IMG/VR virus record: IMGVR_UViG_3300028048_002245
DNA from: an uncultured virus (IMG/VR IMGVR_UViG_3300028048_002245)
Lineage: Duplodnaviria > Heunggongvirae > Uroviricota > Caudoviricetes
Direction: 5' to 3' (one strand)
Length of the DNA: 56,767 bases
The notes beneath the pieces were generated by a model that worked only from the letters and a program-made list of their open reading frames with translations, was not told the origin of the DNA and did not search any database. Of this stretch, positions 7,565 through 48,749 are shown piece by piece. A program made the position numbers and the translations under genes. Every line of letters begins with the position of its first letter. The stretch's first letter is position 1.

Positions 7565-9055
7565 TTAGGCAACTTCTACGATATAGCTGAGGCAGACAGC
7601 ATCGTTATCGTAGAAGGCAACCTCGTCGGCACGAAGCCATGTGTTCGCTTTTGTGGCGTGGACGCAGTTGTAGCCATTTTTTTCGACCTCGTCCTTGGAA
7701 TAAGAACGAGTGTTAGCCACAAACCACGGATTGCCATAGGCACAGGTGAACAGACCAAGAAAACCTGTCTTCGCCGTGCCATGAGCCCATGTCGTACCAT
7801 GAGTATCAGTATAATTGAAACTCTTGGCAAACGATGGGGCGGTGTAATTAGCTGCACCGAGCATAGTCCCATGCTCATGGGTAAAATCTTTATCAAGCGA
7901 ATTTATGATTATCGCTGCCCACGAAGCTGTATGTGAGCCGTGCCAAAGCAGTTTGAACTTTTTTATGCCGTGCTTCTTCGCATAAGCACGCATCTTCTGT
8001 TCCTGCTTCTCCGGCTTCACACGCCAGATGTTTACGACACGAGAGCGGAAGGACGGTTCTATATGCTCCAGAACCTTCTTCCTCTGTTCGTCTGTTGCCT
8101 TCCAGACGTGGATTCCATAGTCATAGAACGACTTATGATCTGTATCCACAGCCGGCTTAGACGAGCCGAGAACTGAACCTTCCATAGCCTGAAGAAGGTT
8201 TTCCTCTCTTTTGATGATGTCTGTAAAATCATCTGCCTTTTTTGCAAACATATCATTAACGTCATCTCCGAGCGGATCTCTCTTACGGGGAGAGAGTGCC
8301 ATGAGCATGGCAAGATGACGATTGAAGCCTTTTACAGACTTCATCTTGCAGAGTGATACAAACTCTGCTTTTGCACTCTGCACCTGCTTCTCTGTTACGG
8401 GAGATACGAGAGTGTTTTTTACTGTCTGATGTGCTGCCTGCATCAGACGGTTATACAGTTCCTCATTATCGAGGTGACGGCGGGTATCCGGCTTGGCAGT
8501 TACTGCTGATACTACCGTCTTTTTGTTCAGGTGTTTTTTGACCTTCCCGTAGATAAGATCAGTCACATCTATATAACCTTTCTGTATCTTTTCATAATAC
8601 AGAGGCCAGTACAGCCATAAAGGGTAGTACCCCTGAACCATTCTTAGAGATTTTTCTTGAATGCCGTTATAACCGCATTCAAGTTCTCCTGTATTGTTTT
8701 TTGGGAATAAATGGTAACGCTTATAGTTACCATACTTCCCCGAGCCTGGATTCACACATCTCAGCTCAGCTTCTAGGTAGCTTGACCTTTTTAATACCCC
8801 GTATGGGATATTATTGTACTGTCCGCTGATATGGACAGCCGGTTTCTGAGCGTCTGCATCTCTTGTCCCGTCACAAGAGAACGTACCTCTTTTCAGAAGC
8901 CTGAATCCTGCTGTGTACCCATTTACGGTTATATCCATGTAATTGGGTACTGGTAGATTAGGTATAAGCTCACCTGCCTGTCTGAATAAATCAGATTCTG
9001 TTCCGTCAAAGTTAATCGTCTTTGACAGGTTGTTTGTTGCAATTTCTGCCTGCAT
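7565..9055 (-). CDS. PARP-like ADP-ribosyltransferase
   Basis: LLWHGS, GTMLGAANYTA, KSFNY and DEVAFY match the PARP H-Y-E triad layout; RBS AAAGGAG before ATG at 9055. Confidence 0.8.
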   Translation of the reverse strand: MQAEIATNNLSKTINFDGTESDLFRQAGELIPNLPVPNYMDITVNGYTAGFRLLKRGTFSCDGTRDADAQKPAVHISGQYNNIPYGVLKRSSYLEAELRCVNPGSGKYGNYKRYHLFPKNNTGELECGYNGIQEKSLRMVQGYYPLWLYWPLYYEKIQKGYIDVTDLIYGKVKKHLNKKTVVSAVTAKPDTRRHLDNEELYNRLMQAAHQTVKNTLVSPVTEKQVQSAKAEFVSLCKMKSVKGFNRHLAMLMALSPRKRDPLGDDVNDMFAKKADDFTDIIKREENLLQAMEGSVLGSSKPAVDTDHKSFYDYGIHVWKATDEQRKKVLEHIEPSFRSRVVNIWRVKPEKQEQKMRAYAKKHGIKKFKLLWHGSHTASWAAIIINSLDKDFTHEHGTMLGAANYTAPSFAKSFNYTDTHGTTWAHGTAKTGFLGLFTCAYGNPWFVANTRSYSKDEVEKNGYNCVHATKANTWLRADEVAFYDNDAVCLSYIVEVA

Positions 9056-9159
9056 GTTATGCTCCTTTCTGCATCTGCAAACAAGAAGCCCCTGTATCAC
9101 GGGACTTCGACTGAAAGTAAAATCCCTGATGATACTCAGGCTACAGGCTGTAAATAAAA

Positions 9160-37914: not shown

Positions 37915-37962
37915 CTCCCTAATACCCACGGGTAAGCCCATGGGTTTCCCCACCAAAAATAT
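37915..37962 (+). mobile_element. 48-bp minimal derivative of the IscB element
   Basis: CTCCCTAATA + single hairpin CCCACGGGTAAGCCCATGGG + TTTCCCCACCAAAAATAT, followed by ATGA. Confidence 0.7.
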
Positions 37963-40423: not shown

Positions 40424-40772
40424 CTCTGAAATAACCAAAATTTAGCAAAGAAAAAGAAGTGTCGTGGTATATCATAGTCCTCAGATGGAAAACAGGATAA
40501 GCAGAAGGAGATGTTTTTTATGGTAGTAAAAATGACAGAATGGGCAGGAATGATGCTCCTTGCAATAGCTTTTTCAAGATTTCTGATGATAGTGACCAAT
40601 TCTGATCCGGATTCCGTATGGGACGCTACAACAAAAGCTGAAGACAAGGTCATGGGTTTTCTGGGAAACATACGAGATCCTGCTTAAAAAGCAAAAAATA
40701 AGAACAAAAACTATTTACATATAAGCGTAATATGATATAGTTATATCTGTCAAGAGGAAATGATTTCTCTAT

Positions 40773-40846
40773 GGACCATTAGCCCAACTGGTCAGAGCAG
40801 GCGGCTCATAACCGCTCGGTTCGGGGTTCGAATCCCCGGTGGTCCA
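40773..40846 (+). tRNA. tRNA-Ile2/Met (CAT)
   Basis: Cloverleaf GGACCAT..GTGGTCCA, anticodon loop CTCATAA, GTTCGAA T-loop; overall sequence resembles Firmicutes tRNA-Ile2. Confidence 0.9.
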
Positions 40847-40919
40847 TTTGCAGGATATATCCACCTTTCCTGGCAGTCCGGGTAATGGCGGACTGTTGAC
40901 AACGATATATCCTGTGCAA

Positions 40920-41291
40920 GGGCCTGTAAAGGTTTCGACGGTGGGTTGAAAACTTAATATGCGTGCCAGTCTGGAAGATCTGTAAAACTTCCACCCAAAT
41001 GTAAACGACGAAAATCGTGAGTACGCTTTTGCTGCCTGAGTAATCAGACATGCTCCTCCCGTTAAGAGGATAAGCTCCATGGATATCACCGCTGTAATCC
41101 ACGGAGTTAAATGAAGCGGTTATACAGAGGCAGCCATGCCGTAATAAACCTCTGAAGAATTTCTTATTCCGGCACAGACGAATACACATTGCCTGTTCTG
41201 TGTACCGTCCAAGCATGGGAACAGTGATACGCACGTAGTATATTATGTGATTAGATTGCATCGGACACGGGTTCGACTCCCGTCAGGTCCA
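40920..41291 (+). ncRNA. ssrA: tmRNA
   Basis: 5' GGGCCTGTAAAGGTTTCGAC; 3' GGGTTCGACTCCCGTCAGGTCCA with G3-U70 pair; tag ORF DENREYAFAA* at 41007-41039. Confidence 0.92.
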
Positions 41292-41357
41292 CTTAGCGTG
41301 ATAAATGACAGGTCAAAGGGACCCCTGAATATCCATACCAGGGTTTTAACCTGTAAT

Positions 41358-41430
41358 GCTCGTGTAGCTCAGCCGGTAGAGCACGTGACTTTTAATCACG
41401 GTGTCGAGGGTTCGATCCCCTCCACGGGCA
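41358..41430 (+). tRNA. tRNA-Lys (TTT)
   Basis: Cloverleaf GCTCGTG..CACGGGCA; anticodon arm CGTGA-CTTTTAA-TCACG. Confidence 0.92.
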
Positions 41431-41749
41431 CTTGGGGACTGCGATCATCAGTATCGTATCCCCGCTTTGACATGAAACTCCTTTCCGTAGCGGTCAACAA
41501 CCGCTATACCTGCATGGTGTATACGAAGAGTATATCAGTGGTTCGACTCCCTGACAGGTATTTGCCCGTATTATCAGACGGGCAAGGATATTTTTATATT
41601 CTCCCCCTATAAAGCGGTTAATAGCCGTAGTGCGGTGGCAGACCCGATTCTCTTCACCCTACTTTGGAATCATCAGGTGCAACTCCTGAACCGCACATTT
41701 ATGTCTTTGTAATGGCTTTGTACATAAATTGTACAGCAGAGGCATATCG

Positions 41750-41961: not shown

Positions 41962-42136
41962 ACGAAGCTTACCGCATCTTCCGATGCGGGGAATAGGCTA
42001 AAATCTATGTAGGGCGGGGACCGCCCGAACTAAAGCCTGTGGAGCTGGCTCTGACGGGGTATACCTTTAGCGGGGTATGCTAGTTACCACCAGTCTTGAA
42101 GCAGGAAGCTCGGCTACTTGTAGCCGAGTAGTTCAC
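41962..42136 (+). mobile_element. Orphan IS605 right end / TnpB omegaRNA scaffold
   Basis: Closely similar to 48556-48728; terminal hairpin CTCGGCTACTTGTAGCCGAG and TAGTTCAC end. Confidence 0.8.
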
Positions 42137-42157
42137 GCGATAACAAGGAATACAGAC

Positions 42158-43843
42158 ATGAATGATACAATAACAGCCAGAAAATATGATATCAGTCTGG
42201 TAAAGATAGCTTCATATACAATGAAAGCCCGCCTTTATCCGAACATACATCAGGAAAAATATATGCAGGCCATCTTGGATGGTATAAGAAAAGCCAGCAA
42301 CGGGACAAAATACTGTCTTAAAAACCATCTGTATCCCGAACTTGAAAAGCCGGGAAAAGACGGCGTGACAATGTTCCCAGACTGGAAGTACATCGGAAGC
42401 AGTGCATGGCTTGAAAAGCTGAGAGACCTTTATCCGGGGATCAGAGGCATAGTTCCGGGAGCCTCACTTTCATCAAGCGTCGGCGGAGCGATAGCCTGCG
42501 ACCTGAAAAAGGGATGGGAAAAGCTCGGAAAGCTGCCTACCGACAAGTGGATGAATCTTAAAGACAAAAAGGGAAGACCTCGGGTAAAGAACTATTGTAA
42601 AAGATTTCCGAGGACAAGTTTCTGGATACAGATACCGACAGACAGGATCAAATATGTTGACGAGAAGCACGTATGGATAAACCTTTTCCCAACAAAGAAG
42701 TTCGAAGATGACACTCCTTTTGGCAGAATAAGAATCCGTGGATGGAACAGCAAGATCACGTTTGATGAAAACGGATCTCCTGTACCCGTACAGAAGAATG
42801 TCGGAGTAAGAATTTCGATAAATGCCTGCGGAGAGTGGTATATAGCATTTTCTTTCCAGAATGCATACAGACCTGTAAAAGTAAGAACGGACATTGAGAG
42901 AACGCCTATAGGCATCGATCCCGGCATCAAGTATTCCCTTACGGATTCCGACGGGGAACACTATGAGAACAGGAGACACAAGGAACGCCTGCAGGATCAG
43001 ATAAACTTCTACAAAGATCAGATGAGCAGAAGGCAGGGGTCGTGTAACGCAGAGTTCAGAAAAAACCGTAAGGAAGCCTGGAAATGGAATGATGAGCATA
43101 AGGAAGAGATCGAAGCAGGAAAAGCAGAAAGAAAATCTGTAGCAGAGTCAAAACGATACCTGAAGGCAAAATACAGGGCAGCCCGTCTTGAAAAGAAGGC
43201 TGTTGACAGAAGGAATAACGACCAGGGAGTTATGACCTCAGAGATCATCGCGAAAGCTTCGCATCTGTATCTTGAATCGCCTGACATAAAGGCAATAATG
43301 CAGGATCAGGAGATGGGCATTCTGGCAGCTGACGCTGCTATGGGTGAAAACCTTCTGAAGCTCAAATATAAGGCTGAATGGAGCGGTATAGGATATCACG
43401 CCATAGACAGGGAAGCACCATCGACACAGAAATGTTCGGCGTGCGGATATGTCTTAAAAGATGATGAAAAGCTGAAACTAGGAGACAGGGAATTTATATG
43501 CCCGGTCTGCGGTCATAAAGAAGACAGAGACGAAAACGCTGCAAAAGTCATACTCGCTACAGGTAAACAGGAAGAAGCTGACGGCATTCCGTCATACGTA
43601 CCTCCGAAGGAAAAGCCTGTAAGAGAATATAAGGATACTCCAGTATCGAAAAAGCATCCTGACGTATTCGTTCATTTCAGCAATGAGATGAAGGAGGCAT
43701 ATAAAAATCCTTTTGTTCTTGTAGATAAGGATGGAAATGTGATCGATGATGCCCAGGGATACGGCTTTACAAAGGCTGCTGATGCGAGAAAGTATTGGAA
43801 TGACCATATAAGAAAGAAAAAGAAGGCAGCAGAAGCTGTCTGA
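42158..43843 (+). CDS. CRISPR-adjacent TnpB-derived RuvC effector (candidate compact Cas12-like), ~561 aa
   Basis: YTMKARLYP N-terminus, RuvC-I IGIDPG, RuvC-II YLES, zinc finger CSACG/CPVCG, RuvC-III DRDENAA; RBS AAGGA before ATG 42158; CRISPR array 191 bp downstream. Confidence 0.8.
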   Translation: MNDTITARKYDISLVKIASYTMKARLYPNIHQEKYMQAILDGIRKASNGTKYCLKNHLYPELEKPGKDGVTMFPDWKYIGSSAWLEKLRDLYPGIRGIVPGASLSSSVGGAIACDLKKGWEKLGKLPTDKWMNLKDKKGRPRVKNYCKRFPRTSFWIQIPTDRIKYVDEKHVWINLFPTKKFEDDTPFGRIRIRGWNSKITFDENGSPVPVQKNVGVRISINACGEWYIAFSFQNAYRPVKVRTDIERTPIGIDPGIKYSLTDSDGEHYENRRHKERLQDQINFYKDQMSRRQGSCNAEFRKNRKEAWKWNDEHKEEIEAGKAERKSVAESKRYLKAKYRAARLEKKAVDRRNNDQGVMTSEIIAKASHLYLESPDIKAIMQDQEMGILAADAAMGENLLKLKYKAEWSGIGYHAIDREAPSTQKCSACGYVLKDDEKLKLGDREFICPVCGHKEDRDENAAKVILATGKQEEADGIPSYVPPKEKPVREYKDTPVSKKHPDVFVHFSNEMKEAYKNPFVLVDKDGNVIDDAQGYGFTKAADARKYWNDHIRKKKKAAEAV

Positions 43844-43852
43844 TAATAAAAA

Positions 43853-43990
43853 ACGGTGAGGCTTAGCCACCGTGTAGTGCGAACCCTTAATACACATCAT
43901 GCCTGCGTGATGTTCGCACTACGAAATGTCTGGTCTACGGTCTTTTAATAGGCATAAAAACCTGTAACTGACCGGCAGGAAACAGACCGA
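43853..43990 (+). ncRNA. Candidate tracrRNA/scaffold RNA
   Basis: Stems ACGGTG/CACCGT, perfect GTAGTGCGAAC/GTTCGCACTAC, ACATCATG/CGTGATGT; loop CTTAAT complementary to the repeat 3' ATTAAG. Confidence 0.5.
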
Positions 43991-44034
43991 TACCATATAT
44001 TGACATGCGGATTATGCTATAACAGAATATTGCG

Positions 44035-44308
44035 GTTGCAATCCGCATGGATTATACGGATTAAGAGGATGTAAGAATGGTGAATTGTCTGCAAAGGATG
44101 TGTTGCAATCCGCATGGATTATACGGATTAAGAGAAGACTTCCTTTGTCTTTGTCAGCGATAGCTCTGGTTGCAATTCGCATGGATTATACGGATTAAGA
44201 GAAAAACTCCGACAAAAGCGACAATCTCGACAAGTTGCAATCCGCATGGATTATACGGATTAAGAGTTTAGTAAAGTTGCAGTCCGCATGGATTGTACGG
44301 ATTAAGAG
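44035..44308 (+). CRISPR. CRISPR array: 5 x 33-bp repeats, spacers of 34, 34, 32 and 9 nt
   Basis: Repeat GTTGCAATCCGCATGGATTATACGGATTAAGAG at 44035, 44102, 44169, 44234, 44276 (last degenerate); internal hairpin AATCCG/CGGATT. Confidence 0.93.
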
Positions 44309-47451: not shown

Positions 47452-48590
47452 ACAAAGCATACGTTTACAGGCTGTATCCTACAGCCGACCAGAAAATCTT
47501 ATTTGCAAAGACCTTCGGGTGCTGCCGCAAGATCTGGAATCTCATGCTAGGTGACCGCATAGATGCCTACAACGATTATGGGATAACCCTGCTCCCGACA
47601 CCTGCATGGTATAAATCAGATGACAGGTATTCGTACCTCAAAGAAGTAGACTCCCTTGCACTTGCAAACGTACAGCTGGCATTGCAGAAAGCTTACAAAG
47701 CTTTCTTTGATGGTATAGCAGAGTTCCCGAAATTCAAGTCAAAACGCCGTGCAAAACTGTCATACACTACCAATAACCAGGGCGGGACCATCTCTGTTGC
47801 GGATAATGCTGTCCGTCTTCCCAAAGTCGGCATGGTAAAAGCCAAGATCCATAGAAATGCTCCTTCCTATATGGTGTTAAAATCCGCTACTATATCATGC
47901 GACAAGTGTGGCGGATACTATGTTTCCATACTTTATGAGTATGACAGGGCTGATATCTTTAGCAATACCCATACATCTGACGACCCGGAAAAACTTCTGG
48001 GACTTGATTACAAGTCAGACGGTCTGTACGTCGATTCCGAGGGCAGATGTGCCGATATGCCGCACTTCTACCGTAAGGCTCAGAAGAAGCTGAAACACCT
48101 CCAACGGGAACTGTCACGCAAAGTCGGTTCAAAGAAGGGCGAGACACCTTCCCACAACTTTGAAAAACAGCTTGCCAGAGTCCGTAAACAATACAGGCAT
48201 GTGGCAGACCAGAGACGTGACTATCTCCAGAAGCGGTCAACCGCCCTTGCTGATGAGTACGACCTTATCGGGACAGAAGACTTATCACTCAATGGGATGT
48301 CATCTTCCAAAGGACTGGGGCTGGGGAAAGCAACAAACGATAACGGCTTTGGTATGTTTATCCAGATGCTTGCCTACAAAATGGCCGACAGAAATAAACA
48401 CCTCATAAAGGTAGGCAGAGCTTTTCCGTCAAGCTAGCTGTGTCAGTGTGGCTATAAGAATCCGATAACCAAGGATCTCTCTGTCCGCACTGTTGTATGT
48501 CCTGTATGTGGCCGTATATATGACAGGGATGTGAATGCAGCCATAAACATCAGAAACGAAGCTTACCGTATCTTCCGATGCGGAGAATAG
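47448..48590 (+). pseudogene. tnpB: tnpB with in-frame TAG before the zinc finger/RuvC-III
   Basis: FPSS*LCQCG...[15 protein letters not shown] continues in the same frame after TAG at 48435. Confidence 0.85.
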
Positions 48591-48749
48591 CTTTATCCAT
48601 GTAGGGCGGGAACCGCCCAAACTAAAGCCTGTGGAGCTGGCTCTGACGGGACATGCCTTTAGCGGGGTATGCTAGTTACCACCAGTCTTGAAGCAGGAAG
48701 CTCGGGAACTTGTTCCCGAGTAGTTCACTTTTCAAGCAGCTCGTCTTCA

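Follow-up and report, generated by a model that had tools for sequence, protein, structure and literature searches.

The locus under study raises the question of what kind of RNA lies between the gene of a TranC-like effector and the CRISPR array downstream of it, and how this RNA recognizes the repeat. A sequence-only reading had placed here a tracrRNA- or scoutRNA-like scaffold half of a split TnpB omegaRNA, pairing with the repeat by a pseudoknot, and had proposed an internal loop as the pairing site. The window, i.e. the whole stretch of viral DNA that was analyzed, comprises 56,767 nt. It was compared with 28 other loci that carry a related effector together with the RNA and one or more repeats, which gives a set of 29 loci. 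Kept outside this count were L001 (identical to the window), L007 (the contig ends in hairpin 1), L068 (its effector is missing the C-terminal domain, and neither RNA nor array was seen), L074 (an N-terminal fragment), L173 (an array beside an unrelated RNA) and the duplicates L105, L109, L110 and L304.

The effector gene and its surroundings

The effector gene (42158-43843, plus strand) codes for a protein of 561 aa with the RuvC residues D254, E373 and D458, a zinc finger and a folded C-terminal domain. Sequence and fold both point to LaTranC as the closest relative. It is the top solved relative by sequence (PDB 9jfq, E 3e-54, aa 14-548) and the top fold match of the structure model (E 2.3e-35, TM 0.56, 30% identity), which has a pLDDT of 85 overall and mean values of 82-90 per block in aa 491-560. 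The RuvC triad is intact, all three residues being invariant in the 27 of 27 aligned proteins. The structured C-terminal domain aligns with LaTranC up to aa 548 and does not contain the tracrRNA, which begins 3' of the stop codon. In a quick tree of 42 proteins, in which LaTranC was not a row, the effector belongs to an 18-row clade (SH-aLRT 95), and its subgroup is sister to L071, L072, L073 and L106; the protein of L072, a member of the same clade, matches LaTranC at E 7.8e-201.

Two other assignments were rejected. Cas12f as effector class was discarded since LaTranC is far closer by sequence and fold: the PDB match to Cas12f (E ~5e-4) covers the zinc-finger region only, the identity in the fold search is 13-16%, and the zinc-finger domain PF07282 is the sole domain common to both proteins. 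An IS200/IS605 TnpB with a one-piece omegaRNA does not fit because the RNA is followed by an array and not by a transposon right end with a flank-derived guide. NF038281 scored 111 bits, compared with a cut-off of 425. No Cas1, Cas2 or Cas4 family was found in the scanned ORFs, which include most window ORFs of at least 90 aa, a few antisense-type ORFs lying outside the scan.

The window contains genes for DnaE, a tmRNA, two tRNAs, three IscB and several TnpB proteins, and we infer that it is a large mobile element. A cluster of tRNA-Met, tmRNA (tag DENREYAFAA) and tRNA-Lys at 40772-41431 adjoins the system; the DnaE gene, an ORF with a PARP domain (7565-9100) and GGDEF/EAL genes belong to the same region. 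At 41962-42136 lies a remnant of an IS605-type right end or omegaRNA, whose terminal TTCAC lies 21 nt upstream of the start codon of the effector, and which has a second copy at 48556-48728. This remnant may have replaced the effector promoter or may supply it. A longer effector start at 42077 falls within it, and the protein P0001 has 561 aa. RNA-library contigs part at 42136-42137 and continue into differing flanks. The segment 41744-41915 is repeated beside IscB genes (11818, 13350, 30680 and 32204) and also at 37925, 39596 and 39865; these copies are probably IscB element ends without a gene.

Homologs were sought in several collections. In viral contigs, a close relative was not found using a single protein or a close alignment as query, and an exact search with the RNA motif of the close clade gave 0 matches. 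Of the phage and plasmid collections, one contained only 4 distant TnpB records and the other none. Family- or order-wide genome searches gained three loci in one family (4/401 including the centre) and, in three other groups, nothing beyond the centre. The effector gene of L116 is broken by a stop after 377 aa, and in L117-L119 the effector match covers this shortened range as well, while the array, the RNA and its pseudoknot match are intact.

A conserved structured RNA downstream of the effector gene

The region 43853-44034 folds with -54 kcal/mol (z -3.37), and 0 of 200 shuffles were as good. Within it, fold, covariance model and antirepeat together delimit a predicted tracrRNA of about 165 nt at 43853-44017 (plus strand), the exact ends being estimates. 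It starts with hairpin 1 (43853-43873, plus strand), the counterpart of omegaRNA stem 1, whose stem ACGGTG/CACCGT had been noticed before and lies at 43853-43858 and 43868-43873. In an unfitted MAFFT alignment of 20 sequences this hairpin is conserved, with 91.6% of the cells paired and compensatory changes in five of six pairs. The corresponding value for stem 2 (43874-43922, plus strand) is 94.4% (20 sequences, unfitted alignment). Stem 2 consists of a conserved GTGCGAA/TTCGCAC core, an internal loop (43885-43893, plus strand) and an inner helix. The sequence-only reading had seen here a perfect 11-bp helix, GTAGTGCGAAC (43874-43884) with GTTCGCACTAC (43912-43922), and a nested 8-bp helix, ACATCATG (43894-43901) with CGTGATGT (43906-43913). 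Both are located correctly, but they share nucleotides 43912-43913 and would not form at full length together; the 8-bp helix also includes a G-U pair. A predicted stem 3 (43928-43987, plus strand) was obtained from the single-sequence fold only and is variable among homologs.

Hairpin 1 and stem 2 were combined in a covariance model, built as had been suggested from homologous loci (19 loci, the window left out). It recovered this RNA as the sole locus in the window, at 43850-43930 with 40.2 bits (E 7e-9), apart from a reverse-strand shadow. The model gave 0 matches in 88 control loci and 0 matches in 67 ordinary TnpB loci (L121-L187, among 100 sources), and it misses L111 and the main module of L240, both without stem 2. 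In Rfam, nothing matched the RNA region at E up to 5. Judged from fold and conservation, the predicted structured RNA is real and conserved.

In L112 (3290-3330), and also in L113 and L114, a near-consensus promoter TTGACA-17-TATAAT lies directly before hairpin 1, which suggests a separate tracrRNA transcript in these three loci. Unlike in L112, the promoter scan of the window listed none at this place.

Predicted pairing of the first hairpin loop with the repeat

Hairpin 1 has a nine-base loop in which A-G-G precedes a five-base segment. Loop positions 4-8 differ among the loci in step with repeat positions -7 to -3. In the window, the loop strand CTTAG (43862-43866, plus strand) would pair with TTAAG of repeat 1 (44061-44065, plus strand). 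This combination is absent from all other loci of the set, therefore both sides have changed together. The other combinations are TGCAG:CTGCA, TCCAA:CTGGA, TTCAG:CTGAA, TCTGT:GCAGA, CACAA:TTGTG, CGCAA:TTGCG, CTCAG:CTGAG, TTCAA:TTGAA, CCCAA:TTGGG and CTGGC:GCCAG. All five pairs are present in 28 of the 29 loci and four of five in the remaining one, with L069 and L073 corrected by motif. In 26 of the 29 loci, a G before the loop segment stands opposite repeat A(-2).

The 11 distinct combinations form 54 of 55 possible pairs, compared with 36.4 +/- 2.8 after permutation (0/200000), and hairpin picking blind to the repeat, with L006 anchored by hand, reached 51 of 60, where permutation yielded 33.8 (0/100000); these permutation counts overstate significance since the loci are related, and they are not probabilities. 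The blind rule had chosen the wrong hairpin in L069 and L073, both later corrected by motif. Within the unfitted MAFFT alignment (20 sequences), 99 of 100 pseudoknot cells are paired, 41 of them with substitutions in both strands; compensatory changes occur in each of the five pairs, and sliding the register lowers the paired fraction to 24-46%. Four modules found later in L115 and L240 added 20 Watson-Crick pairs out of 20. Eleven different loop/repeat solutions would be hard to reach by descent alone.

A different partner had originally been proposed, namely CUUAAU within CCTTAATAC (43885-43893), opposite AUUAAG at the 3' end of the repeat. Its location in the unpaired internal loop of stem 2 and the 6-nt match were confirmed. 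In the window, CUUAAU (43886-43891) forms six perfect base pairs with the repeat, and the duplex energy of -4.3 is similar to the -4.1 of the hairpin 1 pairing. Across the loci a weak excess was found, 57.5% of the cells being paired compared with 51.5% after shuffling (3/500), and a test in the same register reached p 0.015 with wobble pairs, but 0.21 with Watson-Crick pairs only. Against this site, 51 of 120 cells are unpaired and a best-run test without the window gave p=0.42. The caution that a match of this length may be chance was justified: it occurred in 16% of 5000 dinucleotide shuffles within the last 10 nt of the repeat and in 74% anywhere. Moreover, a contig of run X11 from a related strain carries 43891 T>C, which breaks the site (a single contig, with the repeat end outside its view), and 43866 G>A, which perfects the hairpin-1 pseudoknot by turning its wobble into a Watson-Crick pair. 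We consider it highly improbable that the stem-2 loop provides the pseudoknot; the weak excess may be due to relatedness or a minor contact, and the site is not conserved as repeat partner or as a helix. Pairing of TAAT, CAGT or AAGT in the stem-2 loop with the repeat was likewise rejected after best-run and alignment tests. Taken together, the covariation indicates that the predicted five-base pseudoknot is formed between the loop of hairpin 1 and repeat positions -7 to -3, and not by the internal loop of stem 2.

For this lineage, the pairing can be written as a rule that finds the tracrRNA and orients the array: the reverse complement of repeat positions -7 to -3 is found at positions 4-8 of the loop in the first hairpin. 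Joining guided only by the antirepeat and minimum free energy can overlook the pseudoknot or put it in the wrong place. No description of this covariation was found among the literature matches listed; figures and preprint supplements may list the protein and RNA.

Two viral contigs of the sister clade carry three tracrRNA and array modules with one effector: L115 (1635-1990, 3418-3910 and 3962-4320) and, on the reverse strand, L240. The repeats differ by module, and each loop matches its own repeat at five of five positions and the others at two to five of five. These modules are possibly parallel or orthogonal guide sets. No description of three modules per effector was found among the literature matches listed, to which figures and preprint supplements may add.

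Antirepeat, linker and CRISPR array

The second contact of the predicted tracrRNA with the repeat is an antirepeat of about 25 nt (43993-44017, plus strand), which pairs with repeat nt 4-25. Its core is CATGCGGATT (44004-44013), whose complementarity to the repeat had been recognized in the sequence-only reading; a perfect 10-nt match anywhere in the repeat occurred in 0.7% of the 5000 shuffles. The duplex in the window has -21.8 kcal/mol, and 6 of 300 shuffles were as good. Over 18 loci, the antirepeat tracks its cognate repeat, with a cognate sum of -429 compared with -301 +/- 14 permuted (0/50000). In 9 of the 18 loci the top-ranking repeat is the cognate one; for the window it ranks third of 18. 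The duplexes of L240, L111, L009, L070 and L207 did not surpass shuffles. The end of the duplex lies in most loci at about repeat position -9, adjoining the pseudoknot. Co-folding with the repeat, a check that had been recommended, pairs the antirepeat with repeat 1 in a cis fold of -71 kcal/mol.

Antirepeat and array are separated by an unusually short linker or leader of 17 nt (44018-44034, plus strand), and two candidate promoter elements overlap linker and antirepeat. One is the extended -10 element TGCTATAAC (44015-44023), which is in place as previously noted, but is not listed by the promoter scan, as it ends in C and not T. The other, TTGACA-17-CAGAAT at 44000-44028, is listed. Promoter-like matches overall (7 compared with 5.0 +/- 2.5 expected) are not above chance. 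The leader end before repeat 1 (44032-44034 in the window) reads TTGCN or TTTGCC in most loci, though the repeats differ; it may be an integration signal for Cas1-Cas2 acting in trans.

The array (44035-44308, plus strand) consists of five 33-nt repeats, starting at 44035, 44102, 44169, 44234 and 44276, with spacers of 34, 34, 32 and 9 nt. Repeat 5 has two substitutions. Because spacer 4 (44267-44275) comprises only 9 nt, the array may be decaying; short or collapsed spacers occur in L009 and L111 too. Exact 22-nt scans of viral contigs with spacers 1 and 2 and a phage blastn search with 44068-44275 gave no targets, and the best self-match in the window (22/34) is no target. As no protospacer was found, no PAM was derived.

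RNA-library contigs and alternative readings

Parts of the stretch are contained in 20 runs, and four RNA-library runs from four studies were compared. Contigs cover the RNA region in all four, these contigs being strandless and possibly including DNA. In three of the four runs the RNA region has deeper contig coverage than the gene, but contig depth cannot rank the parts and was not used, and the contig starts 43860 and 43862 were not taken as RNA 5' ends. Run X5 contains, between the repeats, a spacer that is absent from the window. The variant 44007 G>A of this run would disrupt a pair of the antirepeat, provided that the repeat there has not changed too; among the variants listed, 44013 lies in a bulge and 44017 keeps a wobble pair.

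Two further readings of the locus have to be weighed. According to one, the first unit is a natural one-piece sgRNA, in which tracrRNA, 17-nt linker, repeat 1 and spacer 1 are joined in cis and later spacers act in trans. The antirepeat ends only 16 nt before repeat 1, compared with 41-45 nt in L002, L006, L008 and L069 (19 nt in L009), the cis fold pairs the two, and contigs of runs X5 (43862-44067) and X6 (43860-44080) bridge the RNA into the repeat. A bridging contig does not equal a single transcript, however; promoter-like elements overlap the linker, and two RNAs could still arise by cutting of a co-transcribed precursor. We regard the one-piece sgRNA as rather unlikely. With similar reserve, and only as a speculation, one could see here a split omegaRNA that has been partly re-joined, with the newest spacer in cis and older ones in trans. 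Across the wider clade, the five-base pseudoknot may serve as a pairing code, with the three-module loci L115 and L240 as examples.

The other reading, in which the region is just a terminator or a remnant of a TnpB omegaRNA without function and CATGCGGATT is half of a decayed repeat, has very little probability. Hairpin 1 does score like a terminator on the minus strand, the 10-mer also resembles a direct copy because of the partial palindrome in the repeat, and spacer 4 has collapsed. Such a remnant is contradicted by the window's own CTTAG:TTAAG combination with its joint change on both sides, by the intact catalytic residues of the effector and by the different spacer in run X5. The homologs keep the antirepeat at the same place, and the idea that CATGCGGATT is half of a decayed repeat was not borne out.

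From the sequence comparisons we conclude that 43853-44017 very probably encodes a tracrRNA which corresponds to the 5' part of a split TnpB omegaRNA and belongs to a type V system of the TranC kind (clade-11-like). The essential claim of the sequence-only reading, a scaffold half that pairs with the repeat by a pseudoknot, agrees with the relationship of the effector to LaTranC and with the published TranC arrangement.

Proposed mechanism and comparison with known systems

The working model for this tracrRNA draws on TnpB and Cas12f biology for the steps of read-through, trimming, guide positioning, cleavage and spacer supply. Transcription continuing from the effector gene would produce the RNA, the RNP would protect it, and a host RNase such as RNase III could trim the antirepeat:repeat duplex. 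The CRISPR repeat would supply the 3' part of the omegaRNA-like scaffold, and the pseudoknot would fix, in the WED/RuvC pocket, where the spacer guide begins. Cleavage of double-stranded DNA beside a 5' PAM is expected from the intact RuvC domain. Spacers may be supplied in trans by Cas1-Cas2 of another system, and the likely role would be defense against, or competition with, other mobile elements.

The scoutRNAs of Cas12c and Cas12d pair with the repeat by a short, pseudoknot-type interaction and are not known to have a long antirepeat. The predicted RNA of the window shares the short pairing, but it has an antirepeat of about 25 nt, so that the term scoutRNA-like does not apply, and its effector is unrelated in size and sequence. 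The tracrRNA:crRNA of Cas12f shows the same two-part pairing of a pseudoknot (R:AR-1) and a long duplex (R:AR-2) (PMC10097598), whereas its effector is far more distant from the window effector than LaTranC.

In the omegaRNA of ISDra2 TnpB, the loop region that follows the 5' stem arm is reported to be the partner of positions -5 to -3, and the pair of -2A and -106G to be non-canonical (PMC10097598). The predicted RNA of the window resembles it: the loop of the 5' stem would pair with bases that directly precede the guide, up to -3, a G faces A(-2), and a stem-4-like duplex adjoins the pseudoknot. The ISDra2 RNA, in contrast, is one molecule that ends at the transposon right end and has three canonical pseudoknot pairs; in the window there are five predicted pairs, and the 3' half is provided by the CRISPR repeat. 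The pseudoknot partner predicted from sequence was also the wrong one in ISDra2, as described in the same report (PMC10097598).

Later articles (PMC13565253, PMC13639567) name Jin et al. 2025 as the source of TranC systems and of the division of omegaRNA into a tracrRNA and a crRNA; the concept is thus already published, and the window adds a divergent, apparently intact TranC. TranC effectors are described as having ~300-600 aa, and for LaTranC a 5'-TTC PAM and a 157-nt engineered scaffold with stems and a triplex are given in a preprint whose main text does not use the word pseudoknot (bioRxiv 10.1101/2025.09.28.678669). Clade 11 is described with repeats of 32-36 nt (median 33), of which an array has 3-17 (median 5), and with an elongated, structured C-terminal domain; its tracrRNA was located between the effector and the array, and a PAM is given for 15 members (bioRxiv 10.64898/2026.03.27.714800). 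The window corresponds to this clade in the size of its effector (561 aa) and in LaTranC (PDB 9jfq, 9jfo) as best match by sequence and fold including the C-terminal domain. It has the same order of effector, predicted tracrRNA with antirepeat, and array, the 33-nt repeat length and five repeats equal the clade medians, and no accessory cas genes were found. It differs from LaTranC in that its effector is only ~30% identical and belongs to a sister subgroup of the LaTranC-like proteins, and in its repeat and pseudoknot sequence. The intergenic span is also shorter than in LaTranC-like loci, with 176 nt compared with 177-211 nt from the hairpin-1 loop to the array, and only 16-17 nt lie between antirepeat and repeat 1. 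As a divergent TranC with a defined guide design, the system is directly testable as a compact nuclease.
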